In this document: in pieces, positions 19,298 through 61,619 of the stretch
Position numbering within the stretch: the first letter of the stretch is position 1
Layout of the letters: each line of letters opens with the position of its first letter
Origin: Vicinamibacterales bacterium
GTDB taxonomy: Bacteria; Acidobacteriota; Vicinamibacteria; Vicinamibacterales; UBA8438
Assembly: GCA_965208165.1 (NCBI GenBank)
Contig: OZ242323.1
Coordinates: 2,864,893-2,928,892, forward strand
DNA length: 64,000 nt
Direction of reading: 5' to 3'
Translations under genes and position numbers: made by a program
The notes under the pieces: model-generated
The model's database searches: none
What the model saw: the letters and a program-made list of their open reading frames with translations, nothing else
What the model was told of the DNA's origin: nothing

Positions 19298-19397
19298 GGG
19301 ACGTCCTTGCGGCCGGCGGAACGACGCGGGTCCCGTCCGGGGTTGACCGGCACGACCGCGCGTCGGGCGGCGGGGCCGCAGGCGGCGATGGCCGGCC

Positions 19398-19471
19398 GGG
19401 AGTCTGCGCCGCGGAACCGCGCGTACTCCCGGAGATTGGTTGGCGCCGGGCGAAGCCGAAGGCGACGGGGC
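19398..19471 (+). repeat. Copy of the ~80-nt hairpin repeat family (opposite orientation to flanking genes)
   Basis: GGGAGTCTGCGCCGCGGAACCGCGCGTACTCCC + GGAGATTGGTTGGCGCCGGGCGAAGCCGAAGGCGACGGGGC. Its tail touches the glnB stop (cta 19471-19473). Confidence 0.8.
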
Positions 19472-19803
19472 TAGGCCACGTCGGTCTCCCCGGTCCGGAT
19501 CACCCAGCTCTGCTCGACCGGCAGCACGAACACCCGGCCGTCGCCGATCTCGCCGGTGCGGGCCGCGTCCATGATGACCTCGACGGCCTCGTCGACCGCC
19601 TCGTCGGCCACCACGATCTCGACCTTGGTCTTCGGCAGCAGACTGATGTCGTACTCGCGCCCGCGGTAGATGGTGGTGTGGCCGCGCTGGCGGCCGTGCC
19701 CGCGCACCTCGGTAACGGTGATGCCGGGGATGCCGCGCTTCGCGAGCCCGTCCTTGATGACGTCGACCTTGCTCGGCCGCACGATGGCCTTTATCAGCTT
19801 CAT
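19471..19803 (-). CDS. glnB: Nitrogen regulatory protein P-II
   Basis: 110 aa from ATG 19803: MKLIKAIVRPSKVDVIKDGLAKRGIPGITVTEVRGHGRQRGHTTIYRGREYDISLLPKTKVEIVV... with T-loop Tyr51. Confidence 0.9.
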   Translation of the reverse strand: MKLIKAIVRPSKVDVIKDGLAKRGIPGITVTEVRGHGRQRGHTTIYRGREYDISLLPKTKVEIVVADEAVDEAVEVIMDAARTGEIGDGRVFVLPVEQSWVIRTGETDVA

Positions 19804-26382: not shown

Positions 26383-26419
26383 GTAGACTCTCGGTGTCTT
26401 CGCTCGGCCCTCCTCCTCA

Positions 26420-26498
26420 GCCCGCCAATCGCCGCCTGCGGCTCCGATTGGCGCCCAGCCAACCCTGCCGGCAGCCTGCACCGCCCACGGCGCGCGCT
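26420..26498 (-). repeat. Degenerate copy of the ~80-nt hairpin repeat family
   Basis: gcccgccaatcgccgcctgcggctccgattggcgcccagccaaccctgccggcagcctgcaccgcccacggcgcgcgct aligns along its length with the copy at 26612-26693. Confidence 0.75.
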
Positions 26499-26613
26499 GC
26501 TAGTGTCCCGTATCAGTGGTTCGCGAAATAATTCAGGGCGACTCTTCTTCCCGGGTCACGGGCGTTCTCACCCATGCGAGATATTTCGCGAACTTCGCTG
26601 GCAGGACACTAGC
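26499..26613. other. 115-bp inverted-repeat element (MITE-like or structured RNA), lower GC
   Basis: Outer arms GCTAGTGTCC (26499-26508) / GGACACTAGC (26604-26613). Inner arms GTTCGCGAAATA (26519-26530) / TATTTCGCGAAC (26582-26593), each containing the palindrome TTCGCGAA. The ~50-bp core is unique. Confidence 0.7.
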
Positions 26614-26693
26614 CCGCCCATCGTCGCCTTCGGCTCCGCTGGGCGCCCAACCAACCCTGCCAGGAGTCTGCACCGTTCTACGGCGCAGACTCC
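26612..26693 (-). repeat. Copy of the ~80-nt hairpin repeat family directly after the stop of the NtrC-type gene
   Basis: Minus strand reads TAG-GAGTCTGCGCCGTAGAACGGTGCAGACTCC-TGGCAGGGTTGGTTGGGCGCCCAGCGGAGCCGAAGGCGACGATGGGCGGGC. Confidence 0.85.
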
Positions 26694-28063
26694 TAGGCGT
26701 CCGCATCCTGCGAGATCCCGTACTGCTCCAGCTTCTTGTAGAGATTGCTGCGCGGGGTGTCGATGACCTCCGCCGTCCTCGAGATGTTCCAGCCGTGCTC
26801 GCGCAGCTTGTCGATGAGGAACGCGCGCTCCGCCCGCTCCTTGAACTCGCGCAGGGTGCCGGCCTGACTCGCGGCGAGGCCCGCCGCGCCGTCCCGGACC
26901 CCCGTCCGCACCACCGCGCGGACGTCGCCCACCTCGATGGTCTCGCCCGGGGTCATCACCAGCAGGCGCTCCACGGTGTTCCTCAGCTCGCGGATGTTCC
27001 CCCGCCACCGCTCCCCGGCCAGCGCCGCTGTCGCGGCCGGGGTGAAGTCGCGGGGCCGGAAGTTGTTGTCCCGGCAGAACAGCGCCGTGAAGTGGCGGAC
27101 GAGCCGCGGAATGTCCTCCCGCCGGTCGCGCAGCGGCGGCACCCGGATCGGGATGACGCTGAGCCGGAAGTAGAGGTCCTCGCGAAAGCGCTCGTTGTCG
27201 ATGTCCGCCTCGAGGTTCCGGTTGGTGGCCGCGAGCACGCGCACGTCGACCTCGATGGTCCGGGCCGAGCCGAGCCGCTCGACCTCTCCCTCCTGCAGCA
27301 CGCGCAGCACCTTGGCCTGGGTGCGGAGACTCATGTCGCCGACCTCGTCGAGGAAGATGGTGCCGCGATCGGCCTGCTCGAACTTGCCGATCTGCTTCTG
27401 GGTCGCTCCCGTGAACGCGCCCCGCTCGTGCCCGAACAGCTCCGACTCGATCAACTCTTCGGGCAGCGCGGCGCAGTTCACCTGCACGAACCGCTCGCGG
27501 CCCCGCCGGCTGTTGCGGTGAATGGCCCGCGCCACCAGCTCCTTCCCGACGCCGCTCTCCCCCTGGATGAGCACCGTGCTCGTCGTTGGCGCGGCCCGCC
27601 CGATCGCGTCCGTCACCCCTCGCAGGGCCGGGCTCTCCCCCACCATCTCGTGACGGATCTCGGCGAGCGCGCGGTAACGGCTGACCTCGGTCTTGAGCCG
27701 GTGCTGCTCCAGGGCGTTCCGGATGTTGACCTTGAGGACGTCCCCCTCGAACCCCTTCTCGAGAAACGTGAACGCGCCCTGCTTCGTCGCCTCGACCGCG
27801 GTGCTGATGGTGCCGTGGCCGGAGATGACGATCACGGGGACGGGGTCGCCGCGCTCCCGCAGGCGCCGCAGGACCTCCAGGCCGTCCATCCCCGGCATCT
27901 TCACGTCGAGCAGCACGAGGTCGACGCTCTCGGCGCCGAGCAGGTCGAGGCCTTCGCGGCCGCTGCGCGCGAACAGGCACTCGTAGCCCTCGTACTCGAG
28001 AGTCATCTTGAGGGCGTCGCGCACCCCCTCGTCGTCGTCGACCACCAGAATACGCTCGGTCAT
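26693..28063 (-). CDS. Sigma-54-dependent response regulator (NtrC/AtoC family), no adjacent histidine kinase
   Basis: Receiver domain ([14 protein letters not shown] ... [11 protein letters not shown]), AAA+ sigma-54 interaction domain ([30 protein letters not shown]) and a Fis-type HTH ([25 protein letters not shown]). GTG 28066 and ATG 28063 are both possible starts. Confidence 0.9.
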
Positions 28064-34721: not shown

Positions 34722-35010
34722 CGTACCACACGGCGGGGGCCGCACGCCGGCCCGGTCGGGGGGCCGGCCCCGTCACGGCCGGCCGCCACCTCGACTCGCC
34801 TGCAAGAACCGGGCACATGTGGCGGAAAGCGAGGGTCCGTGGCGGTTGCCCCAGGAATAGCGTCTCCATCCGAGGATGATCGCCGGCGGCGTCCCGGCCC
34901 GGCCGCGAGGACGTACGCGTACGATGCGCGCAGGCGTCTCGATCGGGATTGCGGGTCTTGCGCTCAATCCCGCCCGCGGCCAGGCGCGCGGCACTCGTCC
35001 GGTCCGCCGG

Positions 35011-35245
35011 GCCCGCCCATCGTCGCCGGCGGCTCCGCTCGGCGCCCCACCCGACCCGCCGGGAGTCAGCGCCGTTTCACGACTCCCAGCCCGCCCATCG
35101 TCGCCGGCGGCTCCGCTCGGCGCCCCACCCGACCCGCCGGGAGTCAGCGCCGTTTCACGACTCCCAGCCCGCCCATCGTCGCCGGCGGCTCCGCTCGGCG
35201 CCCGACCGACCCTCGGGGAGTCAGCGCCGTCTTCACGGCGCGGGC
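35011..35245 (-). repeat. Three tandem 78-bp units of the hairpin repeat family; the last unit overlaps the dapF stop codon
   Basis: gcccgcccat anchors at 35011, 35089, 35167. The final hairpin is GGAGTCAGCGCCGT-cttc-ACGGCGCGGGCTCC, whose right arm is the dapF terminal codons (QEPAP-stop, tca at 35233). Confidence 0.9.
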
Positions 35246-36036
35246 TCCTGCCCGAGCCAGCGCCCGGCCATGACGATGTCCGCCCACCCCGTCAGATGGA
35301 TGCCCTCGTCCGTCCAGCGCACGCGCTGCACGCCGCCCGGCGAAACCACCTCGACCTCGCGCGAGGCGCCGCCGAAGGCTGCCGCCGCCACCGCGCTCGC
35401 GCACGCTCCGGTGCCGGACGCGGCCGTCGGACCAACGCCGCGTTCCCAGATGAGTATCCGAAGCCGGGAGGCCGACTCCACCTCGACCAGCTCGACGTTG
35501 GTGCCTTCGGGGAACGCCGGATGGGTGGCGAGGGCGGCGCCGAGACGGTGGAGGCGGCGCTCGCTCACCTCGCCCCCGAGCACGATGCACTGGGGATTCC
35601 CGACCGACAGCTCGACGACCTCGACCTGCTCGCCGCCCGCCTCCACCTGCCGTCGACGGAGCCCCACCGGCGAGCCCATGAGGGCGTCGAACGTGGTCCG
35701 CCCGCCCGCCGACCCGACCCGCGCCAGTGGTACCGGGCCGGCATCGGTCTCGATGACCGGGCGACCGAGAGAGGGCCGTCCGCGGACGACGATCGCGGCC
35801 AGGCAGCGCACCGCGTTGCCGGACACCTCCGCCCGCCCCCCGTCCGCGTTGTAGAGGACCATCCGGGCGCCGGCCTCGGTGGCCGCGTGGAGCACGAGCC
35901 CGTCTCCCCCCACACCGGTGTGCCGGTCGCAGAGGCGGCGGGCCAGCGCGGCGCGCCCGGCCTCGGCGGTCTGCTCGATGGGAACGAAGAGAAAGTCGTT
36001 GCCGTAGGCGTGGGCCTTGACGAGGTCGAGTGGCAT
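35233..36036 (-). CDS. dapF: Diaminopimelate epimerase
   Basis: 267 aa. MPLDLVKAHAYGNDFLFVP..., active-site Cys blocks (NADGGRAEVSGNAVRC, ERGVGPTAASGTGACA). Confidence 0.85.
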   Translation of the reverse strand: MPLDLVKAHAYGNDFLFVPIEQTAEAGRAALARRLCDRHTGVGGDGLVLHAATEAGARMVLYNADGGRAEVSGNAVRCLAAIVVRGRPSLGRPVIETDAGPVPLARVGSAGGRTTFDALMGSPVGLRRRQVEAGGEQVEVVELSVGNPQCIVLGGEVSERRLHRLGAALATHPAFPEGTNVELVEVESASRLRILIWERGVGPTAASGTGACASAVAAAAFGGASREVEVVSPGGVQRVRWTDEGIHLTGWADIVMAGRWLGQEPAP

Positions 36037-43789: not shown

Positions 43790-44169
43790 AGGCCAGCCCG
43801 CCCGTCGAGGCCTGACGGCGTCGCTGGACGCCCGACCGACCTCCAGGGTCCGCGCCGTGCTACGGCGCAGACTACGGCGTCGCTGGACGCCCGACCGACC
43901 TCCAGGGTCCGCGCCGTGCTACGGCGCAGACTACGGCGTCGCTGGACGCCCGACCGACCTCCAGGGTCCGCGCCGCGCTACGGCGCAGACTACGGCGTCG
44001 CTGGACGCCCGACCGACCTCCAGGGTCCGCGCCGTGCTACGGCGCAGACTACGGCGTCGCTGGACGCCCGACCGACCTCCAGGGTCCGCGCCGTGCTACG
44101 GCGCAGACTACGGCGTCGCTGGACGCCCGACCGACCTCCAGGGTCCGCGCCGTGCTACGGCGCAGACTC
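43790..44169 (-). repeat. Hairpin-family copy followed by a 59-bp sub-unit repeated x6; the last unit contains the GMC gene stop
   Basis: tcgctggacg anchors at 43821, 43880, 43939, 43998, 44057, 44116 (period exactly 59). Unit: acggcgtcgctggacgcccgaccgacctccagggtccgcgccgtgctacggcgcagact. One substitution in copy 3. Confidence 0.95.
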
Positions 44170-45732
44170 CTGGCGCGCAGCCCCCTGCGTCCCCCGCGCC
44201 GCCATCTCGCCGGGACCGCAGCGGAGCTCCGTCCCCCGGATGTGATCGGCCGCCCGAAGGGCCTGGGCGACGATGGTCAGGCCCGGGTTGACGGCCGCCG
44301 ACGACGGAAAGAACGACGCATCGACGACGAAGAGGTTCTCGACGTCGTGCGACCGGCACCAGGGATCGAGCACGGAGCGCCGCGGATCGGTCCCGAAGCA
44401 CAGGGTGCCGCACTGGTGGGTCGTGTTGTGGATCGACCGCGGATGGACGTAGACGATCCCGAGCCCGAGCCGGCGCAGCATCCGCCGGACCTCGCGGACG
44501 AGCCGGTCGTGCGCGCGCACGTTGTTCGGGCGGTAGTCCAGCCGGATGCGCCCGCCGGCGTCGACCGTCACCCGGTTGTCGGGCCGGGGCAGGTCCTCGG
44601 TCATCGCGAGCCAGTCGAGCCCCCGCGCCACCCAGTAGTCGAAGAAGCCCAGCGGCATCCACGGGACGGCGGTCTGGGCCATGACCCCGTGGGTCCGCCC
44701 CTGGGACTGGATCTGCCCGAGCGGGTACCCCCCGTCCGGCCCCTCGAGATAGAAGTCGTTGATCGCCACCGTCTTCTGGAACTCGGTGTGGTTGCGGCGG
44801 AACGGATGGAACCCCGCCATCATCGTCGCGAGGTGCGCCATGTAGCGCCGCCCCACGAGACCCGAGGAGTTCGCGAGGCCGCGCGGGTGCTTCCCGTCGG
44901 CCGACTGCAGCAGCAGCCCCGCCGAGTTGACCGCCCCGCACGACAGGACCACGAGGGACGCCTCGACCCGGCGCCGCTCGCCGGCGTGGTCGACCTCCAC
45001 CGCCTCGACCCGGCGGCCGCCGGGGTCCGTCAGCAGGCGCCGGGCCCGCGCCCCGGTCCACAGGGTGACGTTGTCGCGCCCGGCCGCGGGACGCACGCAG
45101 CAGACGTCGGCGTCGCTCTTCGCGTCGCGGTGGCAGGGAAACGAGTTGCACGTGTTGCACAGGATGCAACGCCCTGGCTCTCCCGGCCCCCGGAGCCCCA
45201 GGGGCAGAGGCGAGGGATGGAGACCCTGCTCGCGGATGCGGGCCACCCAGGCCTCCACCTGCTCCGCGTGAGGAACCGCGGCGTGCGGGAAGGGCTTCCG
45301 CGGGGCCTCGGTCGGATCCGCACCGGCGGTCCCGTGCACCTCGTACAGCCGCTCCGCCCGCTCGTAGTACGGCTCGAAGGCATCGTAGTCGACCGGCCAG
45401 GCCGGCGAGACCCCGTCGACGTGCTCCGTCTCGCCGAAGTCCTCGCGGCGCATCCGGAAGAGGACGCTGCCCCAGAACTTGGTGTTGCCCCCGACGCAGT
45501 AGTGCATGTACGGGCGGAAGGGCTTGCCATCGCCGTCCAGCCAGCGCTCCGACGTCTGGTAGCGCCGATGCTTCCAGACCGCCGCGGGGTCGCGGTTCTC
45601 GGGCTCCAGGGGCACGAAGCGGCCCCGCTCGAGCAGCAGGATGCGGGCCGGGGAGTCGGCCAGGGCGCGGGCCACGGTGCCGCCCCCGGCGCCGGTCCCG
45701 ATGATGACGACGTCGTAGCGCTCGCTCGGCAT
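44155..45732 (-). CDS. GMC-family FAD oxidoreductase
   Basis: 525 aa. N-terminal YDVVIIGTGAGGGTVARALAD FAD motif. C-terminal catalytic region ...HQCGTLCFG... Confidence 0.8.
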   Translation of the reverse strand: MPSERYDVVIIGTGAGGGTVARALADSPARILLLERGRFVPLEPENRDPAAVWKHRRYQTSERWLDGDGKPFRPYMHYCVGGNTKFWGSVLFRMRREDFGETEHVDGVSPAWPVDYDAFEPYYERAERLYEVHGTAGADPTEAPRKPFPHAAVPHAEQVEAWVARIREQGLHPSPLPLGLRGPGEPGRCILCNTCNSFPCHRDAKSDADVCCVRPAAGRDNVTLWTGARARRLLTDPGGRRVEAVEVDHAGERRRVEASLVVLSCGAVNSAGLLLQSADGKHPRGLANSSGLVGRRYMAHLATMMAGFHPFRRNHTEFQKTVAINDFYLEGPDGGYPLGQIQSQGRTHGVMAQTAVPWMPLGFFDYWVARGLDWLAMTEDLPRPDNRVTVDAGGRIRLDYRPNNVRAHDRLVREVRRMLRRLGLGIVYVHPRSIHNTTHQCGTLCFGTDPRRSVLDPWCRSHDVENLFVVDASFFPSSAAVNPGLTIVAQALRAADHIRGTELRCGPGEMAARGTQGAARQESAP

Positions 45733-46779: not shown

Positions 46780-46783
46780 CTCA

Positions 46784-46864
46784 GCCCGCAATTCGTCGCC
46801 TGCCGTTCCGCTTGGCGCCCACCAGCCCTCCCGGGAGTCCGCGGCGTCCTGCGGCCCAGGCTCC
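46784..46864 (-). repeat. Copy of the ~80-nt hairpin repeat family between the GT2 and Gfo/Idh/MocA genes
   Basis: Minus strand reads GGAGCCTGGGCCGCAGGACGCCGCGGACTCCC-GGGAGGGCTGGTGGGCGCCAAGCGGAACGGCAGGCGACGAATTGCGGGC. It ends 5 nt before the ATG at 46779. Confidence 0.75.
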
Positions 46865-46951
46865 GGCCCCGAGAACCGTCCTGCGGCCGCCGCGCCGTCC
46901 CGACCGGGCTCGCCGGCGAGGCCGGCGCCGACCCCACTGCCCGGACCCCGT

Positions 46952-47938: not shown

Positions 47939-48044
47939 TCGCGGAGTGGAGACGCGGTTCGGCGGGATTATATGCCGGACGCGACGGCGCCGGGCCGGGG
48001 CGAACGAGCGCGGGGCACCCCGACCGCCGCCGTCCCGTGCGGCC

Positions 48045-48752
48045 TCAGAACCCGACGTTGAACGTGAAGGCGGTGGTCATTCCTCCCAGATCGATTCGCT
48101 CGGCGAGGAAGCCCTGGTCGAGGCCGACCACGCCCTGGGCGTCCTGGTAGCGGAACTCGATCCCCGCCGCGTAGCGACGTCCCCCGAACCGCAACCCCGC
48201 GAGGTAGACGCGACCGACGTCGCTGCCGTTCGCCGTGTACTGGCCCCAGAAAACGGGCGCGTCCTCGTAGCCGAAGTCGATGAACTCGCCGACCTCGCTG
48301 TAGCGCCAGTTGAAGAGGCCCACCCCCGCGCCCGCGTAGGGCTGCACCACCGCCCGCCGCCCGAAGGGGAAGAAGCGGGCGGTTGCGGTGACCGGCGCCA
48401 CCCGCAGCGTGAAGTCCTGCTCGATCTCGGTGCCGTCGAAGTCGACGAACTGGTCGTAGACGCTGAAGGCCGTCCGCCGGTACCAGCCGGCCCCGACCCC
48501 GACCTCCAGGTAGTCTCCGACCCCGAGGAGCCACTCGGCGCCGACGCTGGCGCCGTTCAGGTCGTCCGGGAAGAAGTAGAAGTCCTGCAGGTTCGCGAGC
48601 AACACGTCATCGGCGATGCGCGTATCCGCCCCCCGGACCGTGAACCGCCCCAGGTTCAGGCTCAGCCAACTGTCCTGCGCCAGCAGCGGCGCCGGCCACG
48701 CGAGCGCCAGCAGCGCCGCCAGCGCGATCCCTCGCATCGACCTCATCGACAT
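48045..48752 (-). CDS. Outer-membrane beta-barrel protein
   Basis: 235 aa, strong SD GAGGAGGA. Signal ...ALLALAWPAPLLAQD, alternating beta pattern, terminal ...TTAFTFNVGF. Confidence 0.6.
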   Translation of the reverse strand: MSMRSMRGIALAALLALAWPAPLLAQDSWLSLNLGRFTVRGADTRIADDVLLANLQDFYFFPDDLNGASVGAEWLLGVGDYLEVGVGAGWYRRTAFSVYDQFVDFDGTEIEQDFTLRVAPVTATARFFPFGRRAVVQPYAGAGVGLFNWRYSEVGEFIDFGYEDAPVFWGQYTANGSDVGRVYLAGLRFGGRRYAAGIEFRYQDAQGVVGLDQGFLAERIDLGGMTTAFTFNVGF

Positions 48753-48830
48753 CTCGTCCTCCTCACGGGCCGCCGGCCGCGCCCAAGCCGTCGTGTCGCG
48801 GCCGGCTTCGGTGACCCGCTACGGGGATAC

Positions 48831-48845
48831 GCAACAGTCGTGCCA
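48831..48845 (-). promoter_or_regulatory. Sigma-54 (-24/-12) promoter
   Basis: Minus strand reads cccTGGCACgactgTTGCgt, an exact match to TGGCAC-N5-TTGC. It lies ~80-90 nt upstream of the OMP ATG (48752). Confidence 0.7.
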
Positions 48846-48907
48846 GGGCCAGGATTTCCGACAACCTGCTTTCTTGCAGCAACTTGAAGGGTTCTCGCCA
48901 GAAAATT

Positions 48908-48931
48908 CGGTGTCCATTCCAGATGACACCG
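48908..48931. promoter_or_regulatory. Inverted repeat CGGTGTC-N10-GACACCG, candidate enhancer-binding-protein site (UAS)
   Basis: 7-bp perfect arms centred ~75 bp upstream of the -24 GG, inside a lower-GC patch. Confidence 0.4.
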
Positions 48932-49104
48932 CGCAAGCTACCCCATCCTACCTGCCGGCTTGCCGTTTCCGCTCGGGCAGAGATGGACGAAGGCGCGCGG
49001 CGGTGGGGCGATTCCGGCGTCGAGGATGAGAGGCTGCGCGGAGCACCGGCAACCGCTGGCAACCGTCTCAGCCCGGCGTGGTATCGTCGGATGGGACCTC
49101 ACGG

Positions 49105-49608
49105 TCAGGACTCCGGGACGATGTCGAGGGTGTAGTCGAGCATCCGGTCGCCGTCGAAGATCCAGCGGCCCGCGAACCGGCGCCCTCCGACGACGAGCGG
49201 CAGCCAGTGGCGGTCGTCCTCCCACATCTCGTCGAAGGGGATCGCGCCGACGTCGAACCAGAAGGGCGCGGCCTCGTCGGTCTCCACCGGCTCGCCGTCG
49301 ACGTCCGCCGCGCGGTACACGCGGACGAACGTCGAGTAGCCGTCGACGAACTGGAAGCAGTGCTGGCCGAGCCGGACGAGGCCGAGCGGGGTCACCCCCA
49401 GCTCCTCGCGCATCTCCCGGACCGCGCAGTCGTCGAACGTCTCCCCCGCCTCGCGCCGGCCGCCGGGGCCGTTGATCTTGCCGGCCCCGAGCCCGCGCTT
49501 CTTGCGGATGAGGAGGATGCGCCGGTCCTTGACGACGAAGACGAGGGTCGCAGGATCGACGGCCCGCCACGACGTCCAGTCGATCTCGCGCACGCGCCGC
49601 GCCGTCAT
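49105..49608 (-). CDS. NUDIX hydrolase (MutT-like)
   Basis: ATG 49608 overlaps the upstream stop (ATGA). Nudix box GGRREAGETFDDCAVREMREELG. Confidence 0.85.
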   Translation of the reverse strand: MTARRVREIDWTSWRAVDPATLVFVVKDRRILLIRKKRGLGAGKINGPGGRREAGETFDDCAVREMREELGVTPLGLVRLGQHCFQFVDGYSTFVRVYRAADVDGEPVETDEAAPFWFDVGAIPFDEMWEDDRHWLPLVVGGRRFAGRWIFDGDRMLDYTLDIVPES

Positions 49609-50432
49609 CCCGCCGGCTCCTGCCCCACGTCGGGGGACCGGAGCGATCGGCTCGCGATAATCCGGAGCATCTCGTCGTGAACACGCCCGTTCGAGGCGAC
49701 GATCTCGTCGCCGTGGGTGTCGAACGCACCGCCGTCGAACCGCGACAGCCGCCCCCCCGCCTCCTCGACCACGAGGCTGGCCGCCGACATGTCCCAGGGG
49801 TGCAGGCGCTGCTCCCAGAAGCCGTCGAACCGTCCCGCCGCCAGGTAGCACAGGTCGAGGGCGGCGGAGCCGAGCCGCCGCACCGCGCGCGCCCGGGCGA
49901 CGAAGGCGCCGAAGAGCCCGACCAGGTCGTCCACGTTGGCGTGCACATCGTAGGGGAACCCCGTGCAGAGCATCGCGTCGAGCACCGAACCGGTATCGGA
50001 CACCCGCAGGGGGGCGTCGTTCAGCCAGGCCCCGGCGCCCCGTTCGGCGGTGAACAGCTCCCGGCGCGTGGGGTCGTAGACGGCCGCCACGACCGGCCGC
50101 CGGTCCACTTCCAGCGCCAGGCAGGAGCAGAAGATGGGCAGGCCGTGTGCGAAGTTGACGGTGCCGTCGAGAGGGTCGAAGACCCACTGGTGGCGGGCCG
50201 CCGCCCGCCCGGGGTCGTTCCCGAGCTCCTCGGCCAGCACCTCGTGTGCGGGAAAGCGCTCCGCGATGACGGCGCGGCCCATCCGTTCGACCTCGACGTC
50301 GATGGCGGTGACGAGATCGATCGCGCCCTTCTTGCGGACCTGGAGATCGCCGCCGAGGCGGTCGAGCTGGATCTCGCCGGCGCGCCGCACGATCTCGACG
50401 GCGGTGGCCAGCCACGTGGAAGGGTGCGTCAT
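49605..50432 (-). CDS. Inositol monophosphatase family protein
   Basis: WVFDPLDGTVNFAHG and WDMSAASLVVEEAGG blocks. Start at ATG 50432 or 50456. Confidence 0.85.
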   Translation of the reverse strand: MTHPSTWLATAVEIVRRAGEIQLDRLGGDLQVRKKGAIDLVTAIDVEVERMGRAVIAERFPAHEVLAEELGNDPGRAAARHQWVFDPLDGTVNFAHGLPIFCSCLALEVDRRPVVAAVYDPTRRELFTAERGAGAWLNDAPLRVSDTGSVLDAMLCTGFPYDVHANVDDLVGLFGAFVARARAVRRLGSAALDLCYLAAGRFDGFWEQRLHPWDMSAASLVVEEAGGRLSRFDGGAFDTHGDEIVASNGRVHDEMLRIIASRSLRSPDVGQEPAG

Positions 50433-50436
50433 GTCG

Positions 50437-50931
50437 TCAGGCAGGAGAGTCCGCACCGTTCCGCGGCGCGGACCCCTGGGGGGCCGATTCGCGGGAGACC
50501 GCCTGGAGGGACTTCACCATCACCACCTCCATGCCCCCCTCCGGCGCCCGCCCGATGCGCACCTCGTCCATGAGGCTGCGCATGAAGAAGATGCCCCGGC
50601 CGCTCGACTTCAGCAGGTTCTCGGGGGCCAGGGGATCGGCAATCTCGACCGGGTCGAAGCCGTCGCCCTGGTCGACGACCCGCACCGTCAATCGCTTCGG
50701 ATCGGACGGGGGGGCCAGCCCGAACTCGACGGTGACGAGCTTGTCCTCGATGTCCCGGTTCCCGTGCTTGATGGCGTTGATCACGGATTCGCGGACCGCC
50801 ACCCCGATCCAGTGAATCGAGTCGCCGTCGAATCCGACGATCTTCCCCAGCTCGTCGCTGACGACCTGGACGAAGTCCACCATGTCGAAGTGACTGCGGA
50901 ACGTCAGACGAACGACAGGGTCGCTGGTCAT
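50437..50931 (-). CDS. RsbW/SpoIIAB-like anti-sigma regulatory factor (HATPase_c-type Ser kinase)
   Basis: ATG 50931 (MTSDPVVRLTFRSHFDMVDFV...). N-box AVRESVINAIKHGN, G-box VVDQGDGFD, SSGRGIFFM. Confidence 0.7.
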   Translation of the reverse strand: MTSDPVVRLTFRSHFDMVDFVQVVSDELGKIVGFDGDSIHWIGVAVRESVINAIKHGNRDIEDKLVTVEFGLAPPSDPKRLTVRVVDQGDGFDPVEIADPLAPENLLKSSGRGIFFMRSLMDEVRIGRAPEGGMEVVMVKSLQAVSRESAPQGSAPRNGADSPA

Positions 50932-51155
50932 GCGGCTGTGTCTCGGTCGGGATGAACGGTTCCCCCCGGCTCTCGCGGCGCGCGCCCGGGCCGCCGGCCC
51001 CTCCGGGGCCCGCGGCAGTAGACGCGCCGCCCCGGCCACCCTCCCGGCATCGGGCGCGGCGACGCAAGTGCGTAACATACTGTCGCTCCCCGCTCGGCGC
51101 AAGACCGGCCGCGCCGCGAACCTCCCCGTCGCGCCCCCCGATCGCGCTCCCCTGA

Positions 51156-51161
51156 TATAGT
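51156..51161 (+). promoter_or_regulatory. TATAGT -10-like hexamer 7 nt upstream of the aroA ATG (candidate leaderless promoter)
   Basis: cctgaTATAGTgctggcgATG. No SD and no obvious -35. Confidence 0.3.
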
Positions 51162-51168
51162 GCTGGCG

Positions 51169-52491
51169 ATGTCGTCCGTCGTCGTGCAACCCGCCGCCCG
51201 TGTCCGCGGCCGCGTCCCGGTACCCGGCGACAAGTCGATCTCGCATCGCTACGCGCTGCTCGCCGCGCTGGCCGAGGGCCGGTCGACCATCGCCGGCTAC
51301 GCGCCGGGGGCCGACTGCGCCTCCACCTTGGCGTGCCTCCGCGCACTCGGGGTCCGCGTGGAGGGGCCCCGATCAGCCGGCGGGGCGACCGGCCGGCCGG
51401 TCGTGATCGTCGACGGCCGCGGCGTCGGCGGCCTCGGAGCGCCGACGGGGCCCCTGGATGCCGGCAACTCCGGCACGACCCTCAGGCTGCTGTCCGGCGC
51501 TCTCGCCGGCCATCGGTTCACCAGCGTCATCACCGGGGACGGCTCGCTCCGCCGCCGGCCGATGCGCCGGATCATCGAGCCCCTCTCGCGGATGGGGGCG
51601 CGGGTGACGGGCGACGGGGGTTGCCCGCCCCTCACCATCGCCGGCTCGCGGCTCGAGGGCATCGACTACACGCCGCCGGTCCCGAGCGCCCAGGTCAAGA
51701 GCGCGGTGCTCCTGGCCGGGCTCCACGCGTCGGGCGACACCACGGTGAGAGAGACCGCCGCCACCCGGAACCATACGGAGCTGGCCTTGCCGATGTTCGG
51801 CGCCGAGCTGCGTCGGGTCGACGGCGGCGTCACGCTGCGCGGCGGACAGCGCCTGCGGGCGGCCGGGCTGACGGTGCCCGGCGACCTGTCGTCCGCCGCG
51901 TTCTGGGCGACCGCCGCCGCCGCCCTGCCCGGCTCGGACGTCACCCTCGAGGACGTGGGGCTCAACCCCACCCGCACGGGCATCCTCGCCTGGCTCCGGC
52001 GGGCGGGGGCGGTCGTGGACCTGCTGCAGGTCATCGAGGACACCGGCGAGCGGCAGGGCTCCATCCGGGTCCGCCACGGCGGCAATCGCGCGCTCACGGT
52101 GGGGCCGGCGGACGTGCCGGGGCTCATCGACGAGCTGCCGGTGCTGGCGGCGCTGGCCACGCATGGCGGCGAGCTGCGCGTGACCGGCGCCGGAGAGCTG
52201 CGGCACAAGGAGAGCGACCGCATCAGCGCGCTGGCCGACGGCCTGCGCGCGCTCGGAGGACACGTCGAGGAGGTGGCGGACGGCTTCCACGTCGCCGGCG
52301 CCCGGCCGCTTCGGGGCGGCGAGGCCGACGCGGCCGGCGACCACCGGCTCGCGATGGCGTTCGCCATCGCCGCCCTCGGCGCCCGGCAGCCGAGCCGAAT
52401 CCGCAACGCCGAGGCCGTCGACGTGTCCTACCCGGGCTTCTTCGATGTGCTGGCGGCCCTCTGCATCCCCAGGCAGCAGTCCGCGCCGTGA
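51169..52491 (+). CDS. aroA: 3-phosphoshikimate 1-carboxyvinyltransferase (EPSP synthase)
   Basis: VPGDKSISHRYALLAALAEG, LDAGNSGTTLRLL, LRHKESDRI blocks. The last codons (QQSAP-TGA) form the left arm of a repeat hairpin. Confidence 0.9.
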   Translation: MSSVVVQPAARVRGRVPVPGDKSISHRYALLAALAEGRSTIAGYAPGADCASTLACLRALGVRVEGPRSAGGATGRPVVIVDGRGVGGLGAPTGPLDAGNSGTTLRLLSGALAGHRFTSVITGDGSLRRRPMRRIIEPLSRMGARVTGDGGCPPLTIAGSRLEGIDYTPPVPSAQVKSAVLLAGLHASGDTTVRETAATRNHTELALPMFGAELRRVDGGVTLRGGQRLRAAGLTVPGDLSSAAFWATAAAALPGSDVTLEDVGLNPTRTGILAWLRRAGAVVDLLQVIEDTGERQGSIRVRHGGNRALTVGPADVPGLIDELPVLAALATHGGELRVTGAGELRHKESDRISALADGLRALGGHVEEVADGFHVAGARPLRGGEADAAGDHRLAMAFAIAALGARQPSRIRNAEAVDVSYPGFFDVLAALCIPRQQSAP

Positions 52492-52640
52492 ATCGGCGCG
52501 GACTGCCGCGGACTGGTTGGGCGCCAGGCGGAGCCGCCGGGCGACGATTGGAGGGCGAGGAGTCCGCGCCGTGGAACGGCGCCGACTCCGGCAGGATTGG
52601 CCGGGCGCCAAGCGGAGCCGTCAGGCGACGATTGGAGGGC
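52476..52640 (+). repeat. Two tandem copies of the ~80-nt hairpin repeat family in the aroA-aroK spacer
   Basis: Copy 1: CAGTCCGCGCCG-tgaat-CGGCGCGGACTG (perfect 12-bp stem containing the aroA stop) + ...GGTTGGGCGCCAGGCGGAGCCGCCGGGCGACGATTGGAGGGC. Copy 2: GGAGTCCGCGCCGT-ggaa-CGGCGCCGACTCC + ...GATTGGCCGGGCGCCAAGCGGAGCCGTCAGGCGACGATTGGAGGGC. Confidence 0.9.
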
Positions 52641-52679
52641 GAGCCGCCCCCGGTTCCGGCCCGGACGCGGCGTCTGCCG

Positions 52680-53177
52680 ATGCGCACTGACAAGATCTAC
52701 CTGGTCGGGTTCATGGGCGCCGGCAAGAGCAGCGTCGCCGGCGCCCTCGGCGGGAAGCTGGGTTGGCGCGTCGAGGACATCGACGACCTCATCGAGACGC
52801 GCGAGGGCATGACCGTCGCCGACATCTTCTCGCGGCGCGGCGAGGCCTACTTCCGCCGCGTGGAACGGTCGGTGCTGGCCGCCCAGGTTCCGGTGCGTCA
52901 CGCGGTGGTCGCGACCGGCGGGGGCACCTACGCGGACCCCGCCAACCGCTCCCTGATCGATCGCGACGGCGTCTCGATCTGGCTTGATGTATCCTTGACG
53001 CAGGTCATCGAGCGATTGCCGAGCGACGGAAGACGACCGCTGGCCGCCGATCGAGCGGGCATGACGCGGCTCTTTCGCGACCGGCTGGCCGCCTACCGGC
53101 GCGCCCACGTCCGGCTGGACGCCGGCGCGCCGGTCGGAGATATCGTCGAACGGATCATCGACCGGCTGGAGTTGTAG
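52680..53177 (+). CDS. aroK: Shikimate kinase
   Basis: ATG 52680: MRTDKIYLVGFMGAGKSSVAGALG... (Walker A), ATGGG block. 165 aa. Confidence 0.9.
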   Translation: MRTDKIYLVGFMGAGKSSVAGALGGKLGWRVEDIDDLIETREGMTVADIFSRRGEAYFRRVERSVLAAQVPVRHAVVATGGGTYADPANRSLIDRDGVSIWLDVSLTQVIERLPSDGRRPLAADRAGMTRLFRDRLAAYRRAHVRLDAGAPVGDIVERIIDRLEL

Positions 53178-53289
53178 CCGGCCGACCTGGCGGGCAGCCG
53201 ACCGGCTCGATACCCGGCACCCGCGGTGAGGCCGCGCGTCGCGCCTGGATGAGGCGCGTCCGCGGGCCGGCGTGGCGAGGCCGTTCCCG

Positions 53290-54039
53290 ATGCGCTTCCT
53301 GATTCTCAGCGACATACACGGCAACATCGACGCTCTCGACGCGGTGCTCGCCCGCTCGCCGCCCGAGTCCTACGACCGCTTGCTGGTGCTGGGCGATCTG
53401 GTCGGCTACTGCGCGAACCCGAACGAGGTCGTCGAGCGCATCTTCCAGCTCGAGCCGGACGTCGTCATCCGGGGCAACCACGACAAGTTCTCGACCGGGG
53501 TGGCGGAGCCCGACGACTTCCGCCGGGTCTCGGCGGAGGCGGCGCGCTGGACCCACAGGGCCCTCACTTCTGAGAACCGGGAGCGGGTGGCGGCGCTGCC
53601 GGCGGGACCGAAGCGGGTGAACCGCGAGATAGAGGTGTGTCACGGCACGCTGTCGGACGAGGACACCTACATCGCCGACGAAGAGGACGCGATCCGGGCC
53701 TTCGAGGCCTCGCGACGCCCCATCTGCTTCTTCGGCCACACCCACGTGCCGGTGGCCTACGTGCAGCGGGGGTCCGACGTGGCGGTGACCCACCCCATAC
53801 CGGGCGGCCCCGACACCACCGTCATCAACGTGGACAAGAAGTGGCGCTATCTCGTCAACCCGGGCTCGGTGGGACAACCCCGCGACACCGACTCGCGGGC
53901 GTCCTACGCGGTCTACGACTCGAAGAGGCCGAGCATCGAGCTCCGGCGCGTGCCCTATCGCATCGACCTCGCGCAACAACGCATCACCGAGGTGGGGCTT
54001 CCCGAGAGCCTCGCCTTCAGGCTCGGCCTGGGTCGCTAG
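53290..54039 (+). CDS. Metallophosphoesterase (YfcE/MJ0936-like)
   Basis: MRFLILSDIHGN, GDLVGY, RGNHD, FFGHTH, NPGSVGQPRD. GTG 53272 is an alternative start. Confidence 0.85.
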   Translation: MRFLILSDIHGNIDALDAVLARSPPESYDRLLVLGDLVGYCANPNEVVERIFQLEPDVVIRGNHDKFSTGVAEPDDFRRVSAEAARWTHRALTSENRERVAALPAGPKRVNREIEVCHGTLSDEDTYIADEEDAIRAFEASRRPICFFGHTHVPVAYVQRGSDVAVTHPIPGGPDTTVINVDKKWRYLVNPGSVGQPRDTDSRASYAVYDSKRPSIELRRVPYRIDLAQQRITEVGLPESLAFRLGLGR

Positions 54040-54161
54040 TGGTGTGTCCGAGGAATGACTTTGTAGTTGTTCCCATGCAGCCGACGGACCGTGGAACCGC
54101 TGCACCGCGCCCGAAGGGCGCCAGCGAACAGGCCGAGGCGCCCGCCTGACAAGTGCCAAGG

Positions 54162-54193
54162 GCCTCCCGCGGCCCTCGACGCCCGCGGGAGGC
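54162..54193. terminator. 11-bp perfect GC hairpin between convergent genes (candidate bidirectional terminator)
   Basis: GCCTCCCGCGG-ccctcgacgc-CCGCGGGAGGC. No U-tract. Confidence 0.4.
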
Positions 54194-54200
54194 AACGGGG

Positions 54201-54356
54201 TCAGGCGTCCCGGGCCTTCCTCCGGGCGGCTCGCTCCTCGCGGCGCCGCAGCTCCGCCGCGTAGGCGTCCGCGGCGGCGCGGGACCCGAGGATCCAGCCG
54301 ACCACCAGCCCCAGCAGCAGGATGGCGGGAATGTAGACGAAGTGTCCGGCGGGCAT
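54201..54356 (-). CDS. Small (51 aa) single-TM protein at the distal end of the ccm operon (not in ORF track)
   Basis: Hand translation: MPAGHFVYIPAILLLGLVVGWILGSRAAADAYAAELRRREERAARRKARDA-stop. GAGG lies ~13 nt upstream and the ORF starts 14 nt after the ccmD-like stop. GC3-rich codon usage like its neighbours. Confidence 0.4.
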   Translation of the reverse strand: MPAGHFVYIPAILLLGLVVGWILGSRAAADAYAAELRRREERAARRKARDA

Positions 54357-54370
54357 CGTCGGGGGAAGCC

Positions 54371-54709
54371 TCAGCCGTCGTCGCGGTCTCCGATGCGGCG
54401 GTTCGCGTCGGCGAGCTCGGCCTCGACGGTGCCCAGCCGCTGCCAGATCGTCCAGAGGTAGCCGACGGCGATCGCCCAGACGACGGCGTAGGCGCCGGCC
54501 ACGAGGGGCGCCGCCGGCATCTGGTCCTCCGGCGGAATGTCGGCCATCGGCACGAAGCCGTCCTGGGCCGCGGTCGTGGCGGGCTGGGCCGCATCAAGCA
54601 CGGCCATGCCGGCCGCCGCGCCGACGACCAGCCCCAGCACCAGCACGCGGGACACACCCCATCGAGACGCCGCCCGCCGCGACGCGCCACGCAGACGCAG
54701 AATCCCCAC
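54371..54709 (-). CDS. ccmD: CcmD-like heme exporter small subunit (start uncertain)
   Basis: The C-terminal part APLVAGAYAVVWAIAVGYLWTIWQRLGTVEAELADANRRI fits CcmD (one TM plus a basic tail). GTG 54709 overlaps the ccmC stop; internal ATGs (MAVLD.., MADIPP..) are alternative starts. Confidence 0.55.
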   Translation of the reverse strand: MGILRLRGASRRAASRWGVSRVLVLGLVVGAAAGMAVLDAAQPATTAAQDGFVPMADIPPEDQMPAAPLVAGAYAVVWAIAVGYLWTIWQRLGTVEAELADANRRIGDRDDG

Positions 54710-55380
54710 TAGTCCTCCTCCAACGCCAGGTAGAGGCGATCGAGCGCCGCCCGCTGCTCTTCCAGCCGGGTCCGGGCCGCGAGCAGCGCCATGCACAACA
54801 CGATGAACCCGGCGAACGACCACCAGAGCGGAAGCCCGAAATCGACCGGGAGCGTGGGCACCACCGACGTGCGGGGATGAACGGTGCGCCAGATCTCGGT
54901 CGAGACGTAGAGGAACGGCACGTTGGCCATGGCGAAGATGCCGACTCCCGCCGCAAGCCGATCGGAACCGGCCCCGCCGTACTGGCGCAGGAGCAGATAG
55001 GCGACCAGGATCAGCTCCAGGATCACCGCCATCGTCAACCGGGCGTCCCACTGCCACCACACTCCCCAGGCCTTGATCCCCCACAGGGGCCCGGTGATGA
55101 GTCCCATCAGCCCGAACACCACCGCCAGCTCGGCCGCGGCGACGGCGAGGCGGTCGGCCGCCGGCTTCCCCCGGAACAGGTACTGCACGCTCGCGATGCC
55201 GAGCACGAAGACGGCGAGGAACATCGCCATCCACGCCGGGAAATGGAAGTAGAAGATCTTCTGCACCAGCCCCATCGTCGATTCGTAGGGCGCCCGGATG
55301 ATGACGATGGGAGCGGTCACGAAGAAGAAGGCCGACAGGCCCGCGAGCACGGGAAAGAAGCGTCGGTTCATCGCTGTCAT
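54709..55380 (-). CDS. ccmC: Heme exporter protein CcmC
   Basis: Trp-rich WGVWWQWDARLT motif. ATG 55380 overlaps the ccmB stop (ATGA). Confidence 0.9.
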   Translation of the reverse strand: MTAMNRRFFPVLAGLSAFFFVTAPIVIIRAPYESTMGLVQKIFYFHFPAWMAMFLAVFVLGIASVQYLFRGKPAADRLAVAAAELAVVFGLMGLITGPLWGIKAWGVWWQWDARLTMAVILELILVAYLLLRQYGGAGSDRLAAGVGIFAMANVPFLYVSTEIWRTVHPRTSVVPTLPVDFGLPLWWSFAGFIVLCMALLAARTRLEEQRAALDRLYLALEED

Positions 55381-56060
55381 TCTGTCATGACCGGCTCGAA
55401 TGTCCATAGCGCGAGGGTCAGGAACACCGCGTCGAAGAAGAACAGCAGGCCGATCCAGAGCCGCGCCATCGCGAGGTTCGGCTCGGGGTCGATGAGCACC
55501 GCGGTGCCGCTGACCCCCATGATCAGCACCGGGATGGTAACCGGATACAGCAGCACCGGCAGCAGGACGGCGCGGCTGCGGGCGCGCACGAGCATCGCCG
55601 AGAACAGGGTCCCCACGCTCGCGAACCCCAGGGTGCCGAGCGACAGCAGCGCGAAGAGCCGAACCGGATGCCGGAACAGCGGGGCCTCGAACAGGAACGC
55701 CACCATGACCGTCACGATCGCCTCGACCACCGCCAGGAGCAGCAGCAGGCCCACCAGCTTGCCGACGTAGATGGCGGGGCGGGCCACCGGCGCCAGCAGC
55801 AGGCCCCGCAGGGCGTCGTGATACCGCTCCCGCTCGAAGGCGCGGCCGAGAGCCAGGGTGCCGGAAAAGGCGATGGCGATCCAGAGGATGCCCGCCGCCG
55901 CCCCCTCCACCGCGCGCCCGGCCCGGACGAAGCCGAACGAGAACACCAGCACGCAGGAGATGGCGAAGAAGACGGTCGTGAACAGCAGCTCGCGGCTGCG
56001 CGACTCGACGCGCAGGTCCTTGCGGACGACGAGCCAGGCCACCCGCAGGAACTCCCTCAT
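55377..56060 (-). CDS. ccmB: Heme exporter protein CcmB
   Basis: 227 aa, six hydrophobic segments, between ccmA and ccmC. ATGA overlap with the ccmA stop. Confidence 0.85.
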   Translation of the reverse strand: MREFLRVAWLVVRKDLRVESRSRELLFTTVFFAISCVLVFSFGFVRAGRAVEGAAAGILWIAIAFSGTLALGRAFERERYHDALRGLLLAPVARPAIYVGKLVGLLLLLAVVEAIVTVMVAFLFEAPLFRHPVRLFALLSLGTLGFASVGTLFSAMLVRARSRAVLLPVLLYPVTIPVLIMGVSGTAVLIDPEPNLAMARLWIGLLFFFDAVFLTLALWTFEPVMTE

Positions 56061-56782: not shown

Positions 56783-57001
56783 TCGGCTCTCAACACCCGG
56801 CCGGTCCAGACGCGAGAGCCCCGGCCCGCGGCCCCGACCCTCCGCGAGACCCCGGGAGCCCATGGTGAAGGAACCGGGATTCGACCGGCCGGGCGCCGGG
56901 CGCCCCGTCGATCCGCCGGCGCCCTCCGGGAGCGGTGCAACCCGGTGCCTCACGAGCTCGCAGCCGGTTGCAAGTCACCAATCGAGCCCCGAGCGCCGCG
57001 A

Positions 57002-61372: not shown

Positions 61373-61504
61373 CGTGATTAGACCTCGCGGAGGAGTGTTC
61401 GAAGGCCCGCCCCGAGCGGGCGGGGCCTCCCCTGACGGAGGAGGGGCGATCCGCGGACCGCCCCCGCCGAAGCTCGACTCCCGTCGGAACGCCGAGGAAC
61501 TCCA

Positions 61505-61585
61505 GCCCGCCGATCGTCGCCCGCGGCTCCGCTCGGCGCCCTACCAATCCGGCAGGAGTCCGCGCCCTTCCACGGCGCCGACTCC
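61505..61585 (-). repeat. Copy of the ~80-nt hairpin repeat family downstream of ccmE
   Basis: Minus strand reads GGGAGTCGGCGCCGTGGAAGGGCGCGGACTCC-TGCCGGATTGGTAGGGCGCCGAGCGGAGCCGCGGGCGACGATCGGCGGGC. Confidence 0.85.
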
Positions 61586-61586
61586 C

Positions 61587-61619
61587 AGTAGCTCGACGCC
61601 GCTAGTAGCTCGACGCCGC
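61587..61619. repeat. 16-nt perfect direct repeat (period 17) duplicating the terminal codons of ccmE
   Basis: agtagctcgacgccgc at 61587-61602 and 61604-61619. The ccmE stop (cta) is at 61602-61604. Confidence 0.9.

Follow-up and report, generated by a model that had tools for sequence, protein, structure and literature searches.

A family of 85-nucleotide double-hairpin repeats at stop codons in Vicinamibacterales, with the properties of a small mobile DNA

The REPIN/RAYT systems, formed by repetitive extragenic palindromic sequences (REPs) and REP-associated tyrosine transposases (RAYTs), have been described in several studies (Nunvar 2010; Bertels & Rainey 2011, PMC3116915; Di Nocera et al. 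2013, PMC3733652; Ton-Hoang et al. 2012), and REPs tagged with GTAG often supply the TAG stop codon of the flanking open reading frames (ORFs), lying within 20 bp of their 3' ends (PMC3733652). The Y1 mechanism of the TnpA protein of the IS200/IS605 insertion sequences has been summarised (PMC6006769), and in Acidobacteria and Planctomycetes there are class 3 TnpA(Y1) genes with atypical hairpins in high copy number, about 600 of them in Solibacter usitatus (Quentin et al. 2018, PMC6006769). Here we describe a repeat of about 85 nt, folding into two hairpins, in a 64-kb stretch of DNA with 72% G+C from a Vicinamibacterales bacterium (contig OZ242323.1, positions 2,864,893 to 2,928,892; hereafter the window). 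Vicinamibacterales rank among the commonest bacteria of soils, and nearly all that is known of them comes from metagenome-assembled genomes (MAGs). Our results show that the element is mobile. The repeats form a family not described before, which belongs to an already known kind of small mobile DNA and is no novel type of gene switch. The reading that we favour, with a probability of about 0.6, is that of a non-autonomous mobile DNA resembling a REP or an IS200/IS605 end, which integrates at YAG.

The repeat family and its two hairpins

All the full copies that the initial annotation had read by eye were recovered, with the same coordinates and strands, by a repeat finder, by alignment and by a covariance model trained on the window copies and run on the window without filters. 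The loci have a real common consensus beyond GC-rich background: the 11 full window units, once aligned, contain 23 invariant columns, and a core pattern of 23 bases, GGCGCCNNGCGGAGCCGN{2,3}GGCGACGA, is matched seven times in the window and not once in 100 dinucleotide-preserving shuffles. The hairpin element occupies 8 sites with 16 units. The covariance-model matches (19394-19483(+), 26414-26505(-), 26606-26698(-), three units in 35005-35253(-), the array 43790-44175(-), 46778-46869(-), 52471-52553(+), 52554-52646(+) and 61499-61590(-)) have E values from 1e-15 to 1e-7, with no further strong loci in the window, and a generic repeat finder, run independently, recovers the family there as well (families D1, D3, D4, D16 and I1).

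When 185,579 species-representative genomes were scanned for the core pattern, at least 112 tiles of 8 kb, from 28 other genomes, proved to hold the unit of about 85 nt. The sources of the matches listed are all Vicinamibacterales, Vicinamibacteria or 'Acidobacteria bacterium' MAGs, and judging from these listed matches the family is probably restricted to Vicinamibacterales and close Acidobacteriota. When the covariance model and a profile hidden Markov model (HMM) were applied to about 945 kb from 29 genomes (28 MAGs and the window), 216 non-overlapping units were found at 168 sites, of which 134 are single and 34 are arrays of two to six units. The density, calculated by leaving out one ascertained site per tile, is about 56 extra sites per Mb, which gives by extrapolation a few hundred copies per genome of 6-7 Mb. 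Copies are 89% identical to a single consensus across the 29 genomes. The core pattern has no match in IMG/VR, and the consensus has none in phage and plasmid collections. In an Rfam scan of the window the RNase P RNA alone passes the gathering threshold; at E = 10 no family resembles the element, the best sub-threshold matches being due to chance (E>1). No description of the family was found in Rfam or in the literature searched, in agreement with the initial annotation, which had not recognised it as a named family.

Each unit is built of (C)YAG, hairpin 1 (15-18 bp), a G-rich spacer of 16 nt, hairpin 2 (11 bp, with G.A pairs) and a final GGC-YAG, and the consensus reads CTAG/GAGTCTGCGCCGTAGAACGGCGCAGACTCC-TGGCAGGGTTGGTTGGG-CGCCAAGCGGAGCCGCAGGCGACGATTGGCG-GGCTAG (here and below a slash marks the junction). 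Hairpin 1, GGAGTCTGCGCCG-TAGAA-CGGCGCAGACTCC, has a 15-bp stem that is lengthened by 2-3 pairs through the 5' YAG (Y4-G79, A5-T73), and is followed by TGGCAGGG. The initial annotation had taken the sequence beyond this hairpin as a conserved tail and had missed that this stretch, the source of the 23-base core, holds a second, covarying hairpin, CGCCNA-g-CG-ga-GCC-gca-GGC-ga-CG-a-TN'GGCG, with internal loops that can form G.A pairs. Its N-N' pair is A-T in 44 copies, C-G in 43, G-T in 26 and G-C in 14, while about 10 copies have no pair there. Between hairpin 2 and the terminal YAG there are 3 nt, and the hairpin is followed by GGCTAG; this model, derived from the consensus fold and covariation, replaced an early tail structure obtained with RNAalifold. 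The folding energy of the consensus is -52.6 kcal/mol for RNA (z = -5.5) and -31.8 kcal/mol for DNA (z = -6.3). About 50 nt of sequence outside the hairpin are conserved along with it, and some positions do not vary in the copies, such as the CCG of the hairpin-2 loop region.

Terminal inverted repeats are absent under any parse (5' end GGAGTCTGCGCC, reverse-complemented 3' end GCCCGCCAATCG), and in an inverted alignment the consensus ends have only about 2 of 8 bases in common. The 5' tetramer of the 84 single copies is CTAG in 25, CCAG in 21, GTAG in 11 and CCGG in 8, and stop-abutting copies have CTAG 48 times and GTAG 38 times. Clusters of several units are head-to-tail in 33 of 34 cases and of mixed orientation in one.

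Presence/absence polymorphism and position on stop codons

Four precise filled/empty pairs of orthologous sites were found between genomes that are 92-95% identical (L-numbers are labels of the compared loci or contigs). The copy at 26608-26692 of the window is missing from a MAG contig of about 92% identity, L049, where the empty site reads GACGCCTAG/TGTCC with CTAG kept. L024 is filled at 3821 and L034 is empty, reading GGATAG/CCGGAG with ATAG kept; in L024 the former TAG has turned into CGG, and the ORF continues for five codons up to the TAG of the loop. The reverse situation is seen at 2679 of L034, filled, with CGAC kept in the empty allele of L024, and a copy at 2029 of L006 faces an empty allele in L097 that keeps CCAG. 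Filled alleles carry a tetramer on each side and empty alleles carry one, which fits an insertion without duplication and a duplication of 3-4 bp alike. Of the four sites, two coincide with TAG stops and another is located upstream of a start codon. The initial suggestion of an element of the REP/BIME type, BIMEs being bacterial interspersed mosaic elements, stands as far as REP-like mobile DNA is concerned, given these precise polymorphisms, and fails for the BIME organisation, given the single mixed cluster.

The number of units differs at four more orthologous sites (for example one against two upstream of rnpB, three against one, and two against four), and seven sites are conserved at the same distance of 92-95%. 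The four sites that can be compared with a contig 98-99.8% identical to the window show no change there, either in presence or in unit number. Turnover is real but slow, because gains and losses are seen at 92-95% identity and none at 98-99.8%. The array structures of 3 x 78 nt and 6 x 59 nt given at the outset were confirmed by the repeat finder, and these arrays of 99-100% identical cut-down units are best read as products of local slippage or unequal exchange, not of re-insertion. Upstream of the P-II gene there are two to four units in L114 and L116 and none in the window, the flanks being too diverged to define an empty site. Four contigs from ENA (ERZ24894576:ctg39456l, ERZ25084387:ctg30235l, ERZ21861969:ctg21559l, of 2.2 Mb, and ERZ23496164 scaffold_9280; window compared with L115, L117, L199 and L200) are 98-99.8% identical to the window and, by this identity, probably come from the same species.

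The position of the element relative to genes, called here by codon-position G+C, is strongly biased. In unidirectional contexts 79 sites lie along the gene direction and 18 opposite to it (81%; p = 3e-10); 32 sites are found between convergent genes and 17 between divergent ones, divergent spacers making up 29% of the intergenic bases but only 12% of the sites. The stop codon of a co-oriented upstream gene (115 sites) has its last base at model position 6, that is, as a TAG right before hairpin 1, in 40 cases, and at model position 21, as an in-frame TAG or TGA in the hairpin-1 loop 15 nt later, in 17; at 21 further sites it is a converging gene that has its stop in the palindromic 3' CTAG. 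The initial annotation had noted, in the window, a bias to gene 3' ends and an orientation like that of the upstream gene in 8 of 9 loci, 19398(+) being the exception, and both are borne out in this larger sample. The proximity to stop codons which it had reported is also real and goes beyond nearness, since the element's own TAG, TGA or CTAG is the stop or abuts it at 77 of 162 sites. Element and TAG stop coincide exactly far more often than chance would allow.

The stops touched by an element are TAG in 87 cases, TGA in 10 and TAA in 2, against 180 TAG, 376 TGA and 16 TAA elsewhere, and the ratio of CTAG to GTAG is 48 to 38 at stop-abutting copies and 41 to 118 at element-free TAG stops. CTAG is scarce in these genomes: the window has 13 against 161 expected from composition (four element ends, six other stop codons, one in the RNase P RNA and two inside genes), and its count over the 945 kb is 0.27 times what a Markov model predicts. 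TTAG and TAA are avoided about as strongly as CTAG in the window and in the fetched Vicinamibacterales loci. The idea that very-short-patch repair turns CTAG into CCAGG was dropped, since CCWGG is not enriched (ratio 0.9). Three copies (L010 414-502; L068 1430-1516 and 2064-2151) lie antisense inside long ORF calls whose frame is open through the element (e.g. ...HLARQSSPHGSAWRPANPAGVRAVLRRRLPA...), and are either in-frame intragenic insertions or artefacts of gene calling.

The copies of the window are listed in Table 1.

Table 1. Hairpin-repeat copies in the window and the features attached to them
Feature	Position	Strand	Remarks
Unit A	52474..52559	+	5' CAG; hairpin 1 52474-52508; hairpin 2 52522-52553; 3' GGGCGAG
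aroA stop in unit A	52489-52491	+	TGA in hairpin-1 loop; Pfam EPSP synthase
Unit B	52558..52643	+	hairpin 1 52557-52591; hairpin 2 52606-52637; head-to-tail with unit A
Best-preserved unit	26608..26695	-	TAG stop 26695-26693 of NtrC-type regulator gene plus 85-nt insertion 26692-26608 (GAGTC...GGGCTAG)
Unit with degenerate hairpin 1	26418..26502	-	40 nt upstream of RNase P RNA gene (26377-25966)
Head-to-tail array of three units	35009..35250	-	35164-35250 full length; 35086-35161 and 35009-35083 without part of the hairpin-1 5' arm
Array	43793..44173	-	first unit, 59-nt sub-units, last unit with complete tail
Single unit	46781..46865	-	between GT2 gene (stop 46952, 83 nt upstream) and Gfo/Idh/MocA gene (start 46779, 2 nt downstream)
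Single unit	61502..61588	-	between ccmE (TAG stop 61604-61602, 12 nt upstream) and ccmF (start 61372)
Single unit, shortened 3' part (model positions 3-76)	19396..19474	+	antisense to flanking genes
Hairpin-1-only remnant	50426..50481	-	inside last codons of gene 50437-50883; weak, E=0.017

Pfam confirmed the gene names given initially for the neighbours of the copies (aroA/aroK, dapF/radC, GMC oxidoreductase, NtrC-type regulator, GT2/Gfo-Idh-MocA, ccmE/ccmF and P-II/GlnE), and copies do lie inside apparent operons such as aroA-aroK. A hairpin lying 0-18 nt from the stop, or overlapping it, is a description that can be refined: the stop is in the loop for aroA, dapF and the GMC oxidoreductase, a TAG precedes the hairpin for the NtrC-type gene, and the stop is 12 nt upstream for ccmE. 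The last five codons of AroA (Q-Q-S-A-P) are sequence of unit A, which has one GAG in common with unit B at their junction; unit B ends 37 nt before the start of aroK (52680; Pfam SKI). In the three-unit array, spaced 3 x 78 nt, the two shortened units are 100% identical to each other, and the dapF stop (TGA, 35235-35233; Pfam DAP_epimerase) falls in the loop of the first hairpin, giving DapF the element-encoded tail Q-E-P-A-P. The 59-nt sub-units of the other array consist of hairpin 1 and half of the tail, in six copies with 59-nt spacing and 99% identity, the TAG of the GMC oxidoreductase gene (44157-44155) lying in its first loop, so that this gene, too, ends in five codons derived from the element. 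At the site of the single unit upstream of the RNase P RNA gene L049 holds two tandem units, and the P-II gene, which is read from the minus strand, has its TAG stop within the terminal CTAG (19471-19474) of the shortened unit. Of the two degenerate pieces claimed at first, the one at 50426-50481(-) stands as a weak remnant; that at about 10079-10187 is not significant (E=0.57).

Several further repeats were seen beside these copies. A 14-nt duplication of the ccmE 3' end (CGTCGAGCTAC-TAG ... CGTCGAGCTAC-TGG, 61589-61620 (-)) immediately precedes the ccmE element, and this copy looks as if it had once abutted the stop and had then been displaced by the short tandem duplication. The P-II/GlnE region is a hot spot (window 19298-19470 and 19878-19972; L114 2747-3480; L116 2602-3610; L118): relatives with 90-94% identity have an extra hairpin repeat of about 70 nt (CCGCAGCCGCGGCGAG...CTCGCCACGGGCTGC), another inverted-repeat element, and three copies of CCGCCTAG between the P-II stop and the family copy. 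Upstream of rnpB the two hairpin-repeat copies are separated by a second, unrelated element of about 105 nt (window 26503-26609; L049 4305-4409), with terminal inverted repeats GTGTCC...GGACAC, inner TTCGCGAA boxes and a TA on either side (cTA/GTGTCC...GGACAC/TAg), so that several small elements are stacked at one (C)TAG site; the 945 kb contain 13 single matches resembling its terminal repeats. Elsewhere in the window tandem repeats occur at 9567-9851, 13309-13527, 14957-15386, 38408-38802, 23050-23241 and 33871-34034 (39 nt x6, 97 nt x2, 210 nt x2, about 97 nt x3-4, 75 nt x2). None of them was found in other loci; the 39-nt repeat runs over the 3' end of gene 8386-9624, and the region 33871-34034 is tandemly expanded in L199 (4071-4404), a contig of 98-99.6% identity.

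A proposed route of insertion and its rivals

We infer that the element integrates at YAG, with a preference for CTAG, leaving a tetramer on both sides where there was one. Insertions within genes would be lost and the survivors would stand on TAG stop codons: because CTAG and TAG are rare outside stops and intragenic insertions are removed, copies would accumulate there. The stop would be kept on insertion, and the hairpin-1 loop would offer an in-frame back-up stop 15 nt downstream should the first decay. Beside a palindromic CTAG the stop would be preserved in either orientation, which would give rise to copies that abut the stop with their 5' end as well as to copies that do so with their 3' end. 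That the elements coincide exactly with TAG points to insertion directed by YAG/TAG rather than to selection for a function at the 3' end. Slippage or unequal exchange may then lengthen and shorten the arrays locally, and the inserted element would be co-transcribed as a double hairpin of the 3'-untranslated region (UTR) or between cistrons, where it may protect or modulate the upstream message. The element would be moved in trans by an enzyme encoded outside the window. Our first candidate for it is a single-strand-specific HUH/Y1 transposase, either a RAYT or one of the IS200/IS605 type, as suggested by precedent and by the architecture: a GC-rich hairpin has a tetranucleotide at its foot, hairpins lie subterminally at both ends, inverted repeats are lacking, and the empty site is precise.

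Several results weigh against this reading. An HMM built from 108 diverse RAYT representatives matched no ORF in about 970 kb of Vicinamibacterales DNA, which is weak evidence, as the fetched tiles cover only about 0.5% of the carrier genomes; tblastn with Escherichia coli RayT against the 945 kb gave a best, spurious, E value of 0.34; and none of 80 RAYT-bearing metagenome loci contains a copy of the element. Exact target and cut positions are put in question by the empty site that reads CGAC, and the 5' and 3' YAG variants of a copy are uncorrelated (Fisher p = 0.7), for which reason neither simple target duplication nor pure decay was retained as the cause of these variants. Within the same 8-kb tile site orientations agree in 27 cases and disagree in 36. 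The element's orientation follows local transcription, not the replication strand; a strand test of the tiles by GC skew was too noisy, was confounded by gene strand and was superseded by this concordance test. The orientation bias also persists in copies that do not abut a stop (33 against 7), where it could come from selection on the transcript or from insertion into the exposed non-template strand of transcribed DNA. Finally, copies are 83.2% identical between genomes and 84.2% within a genome, which leaves room for selection on the copies.

The search for the enzyme produced other negative results and some observations on neighbouring genes. The window has no Y1- or RAYT-like ORF, in line with the initial annotation, which had seen no transposase or RAYT-like gene, a homologue search with RayT retrieved only enterobacterial relatives, and the supplement of PMC6006769 has no Vicinamibacteria entries. 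Copies in inverted orientation bracket only ordinary genes (LRR, methyltransferase, DUF885, HIT, HU and TAtT), and in the sampled 0.5% no transposase is flanked by tail-only or hairpin-only copies. One tail-only copy adjoins a low-GC island (L002 4758-6373; 56-62% against about 70%) with an ORF of 409 aa that has no Pfam match and another whose N-terminus appears PIN/VapC-like by eye. In OZ251506.1 a segment of 500 bp occurs twice with 94% identity (L022 6970-7467 and L027 1184-1682), and consists of an element copy, a TATAAT and the start of a gene with a weak, sub-threshold match to Uma2, a putative endonuclease. The Uma2-like gene was rejected as partner because it is not consistently linked, a third homologue (L044, 51% identity) not adjoining any copy.

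Could the element be instead a host-selected RNA module? In this account a double hairpin in 3'-UTRs or between cistrons would make the upstream mRNA more stable, adjust translation termination or operon polarity, or serve as the binding site of a conserved protein, mobility being only its means of spread. Such a module would explain the co-orientation with transcription, both overall and away from stops, the under-use of divergent regions, the 89% identity to one consensus in 29 genomes with nearly equal identity within and between genomes, the invariant positions, such as the CCG in the hairpin-2 loop region, and the maintenance of hairpin 2 by covariation. To this could be added the G.T pairs, which can be formed on the sense strand only (271 G.T against 112 A.C cells); this excess rests on three positions, outside which it is gone (126 against 102), and is therefore no more than a hint of strand-specific use. 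However, copies are gained and lost between close relatives without compensating change, 18 sites are antisense and 17 lie in divergent regions, array units with a truncated hairpin 1 or without tail persist, the flanking genes have no common function and there is no T-tract, while target choice explains the exact coincidence with TAG more simply. We therefore regard the module as an unlikely explanation of the family, and a functional RNA as a possible secondary role of the element. A further reading, which we hold to be distinctly improbable, is that the element is driven by neither a RAYT nor an IS200-type enzyme and belongs to a mobilisation system not yet described. Such a system would home to YAG/TAG on whichever strand of transcribed DNA is the non-template one, so that orientation would track transcription rather than replication; alternatively, the element would be a domesticated and conserved 3'-UTR module that binds a protein throughout the order. 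If either were true, stop codons would be dedicated landing pads and the in-frame loop stop a built-in safeguard.

A classical miniature inverted-repeat transposable element (MITE), derived from a DDE insertion sequence of the IS5 or IS630/Tc1 type and duplicating a CTAG or TA target, is very doubtful. The tetramer found twice in filled and once in empty sites is what a target duplication of 2-4 bp would leave, and the inverted-repeat element flanked by TA at the same CTAG site upstream of rnpB (26503-26609; L049) shows that such DDE elements inhabit these genomes; but the repeat lacks terminal inverted repeats, there is no correlation between the 5' and 3' tetramers of a copy, and strict head-to-tail arrays and strand asymmetry are unexpected for a symmetric inverted-repeat element. 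An intrinsic terminator lacking a U-tract, as considered in the initial annotation and here taken as duplicated by chance, or mere GC-rich hairpin background, would fit the strong GC-rich hairpin directly after many genes and is already refuted as a sufficient explanation. No T-run follows the copies and no terminator-like site in 43000-62500 coincides with any of them, the core pattern and the 50 nt of conserved non-hairpin sequence are not background, and copies occur inside the aroA-aroK and ccmE-ccmF gene pairs and also antisense to and upstream of genes. An integron attC site was rejected too: by inspection the consensus has no R''/L''...L'/R' core sites (RYYYAAC ... GTTRRRY), and the flanking genes are housekeeping genes with conserved synteny.

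What does a mobile repeat on stop codons mean for these genomes? The repeat fixes the stop codon of many genes, adds short encoded tails once the original TAG decays, as in AroA and DapF, and may be mistaken for coding sequence in annotation. Since arrays vary in unit number between close relatives, they are natural variable-number tandem repeat markers and likely break points of assemblies. The family extends the REP-like world to a new class of Acidobacteriota, and is a clean case in which the choice of a YAG target, together with the scarcity of CTAG and TAG, can explain how mobile repeats pile up at gene 3' ends. The two hairpins and the YAG ends provide a search image for the moving enzyme, which would be of practical interest if it integrates single-stranded DNA at a site of 3-4 nt.

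Comparison with known repeats and insertion sequences

Among described repeats the mycobacterial interspersed repetitive units (MIRUs) resemble the element in array behaviour and in overlap with stop codons, a comparison made by description. MIRUs (Supply et al. 1997) are reportedly units of 40-100 bp in head-to-tail arrays of variable number, intergenic within operons of a high-GC bacterium; they are said to have the same orientation as the genes, to overlap the upstream stop codon and to include shorter classes without part of the long unit. They are not known as hairpin pairs, nor are they known to have a precise YAG target. Bacterial MITEs with TA or CTAG targets (IS630- or IS5-derived, e.g. 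Correia elements) are alike in size, copy number, intergenic position, co-transcription and short duplicated target; however, they are defined by terminal inverted repeats, which the element lacks.

The class 3 Y1 hairpins belong to the same phylum and are, like the element, high-copy REP-like structures outside the canonical definition of a REP. Theirs have a CnGA foot and occur in other acidobacterial classes, whereas the element has YAG; the two are set apart by description only.

With REPs the element has in common a GC-rich hairpin of 12-18 bp that often carries NTAG as the tetranucleotide of its 5' foot, a copy number estimated at a few hundred per genome, an extragenic position near the 3' ends of unidirectional and convergent genes, a tag that often supplies the TAG stop of the flanking ORF, and a chromosomal, lineage-restricted spread (none in the phage and plasmid collections) with slow turnover. 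In contrast to REPs, of 20-40 nt, it is 85 nt long, with a second conserved hairpin and a G-rich spacer, and its tag is more often CTAG or CCAG than GTAG. Unlike REPINs and BIMEs it is single or head-to-tail and almost never forms inverted pairs (1 of 34 clusters is mixed), and, unlike in the REPIN/RAYT systems, no RAYT was found for it in the 970 kb, about 0.5% of the genomes.

The ends of IS200/IS605 elements and their derivatives without ORF, the palindrome-associated transposable elements, likewise lack terminal inverted repeats and have a subterminal hairpin at each end; as we propose for the element, they insert beside a short specific sequence while their own 3' end carries a similar one, and show a precise empty site and strand asymmetry. 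The element differs from IS608 and ISDra2 in an orientation that follows transcription, not the lagging-strand template, and from the group in that hairpin 1 begins right at the junction and a separate guide tetranucleotide is lacking; in the sampled 0.5% of the genomes there was no autonomous parent. The element works like a REP or an IS200/IS605 derivative without ORF. Because the REPIN/BIME organisation and the replication-strand rule do not apply to it, and the transposase was not found in the DNA searched, we file it under neither group.

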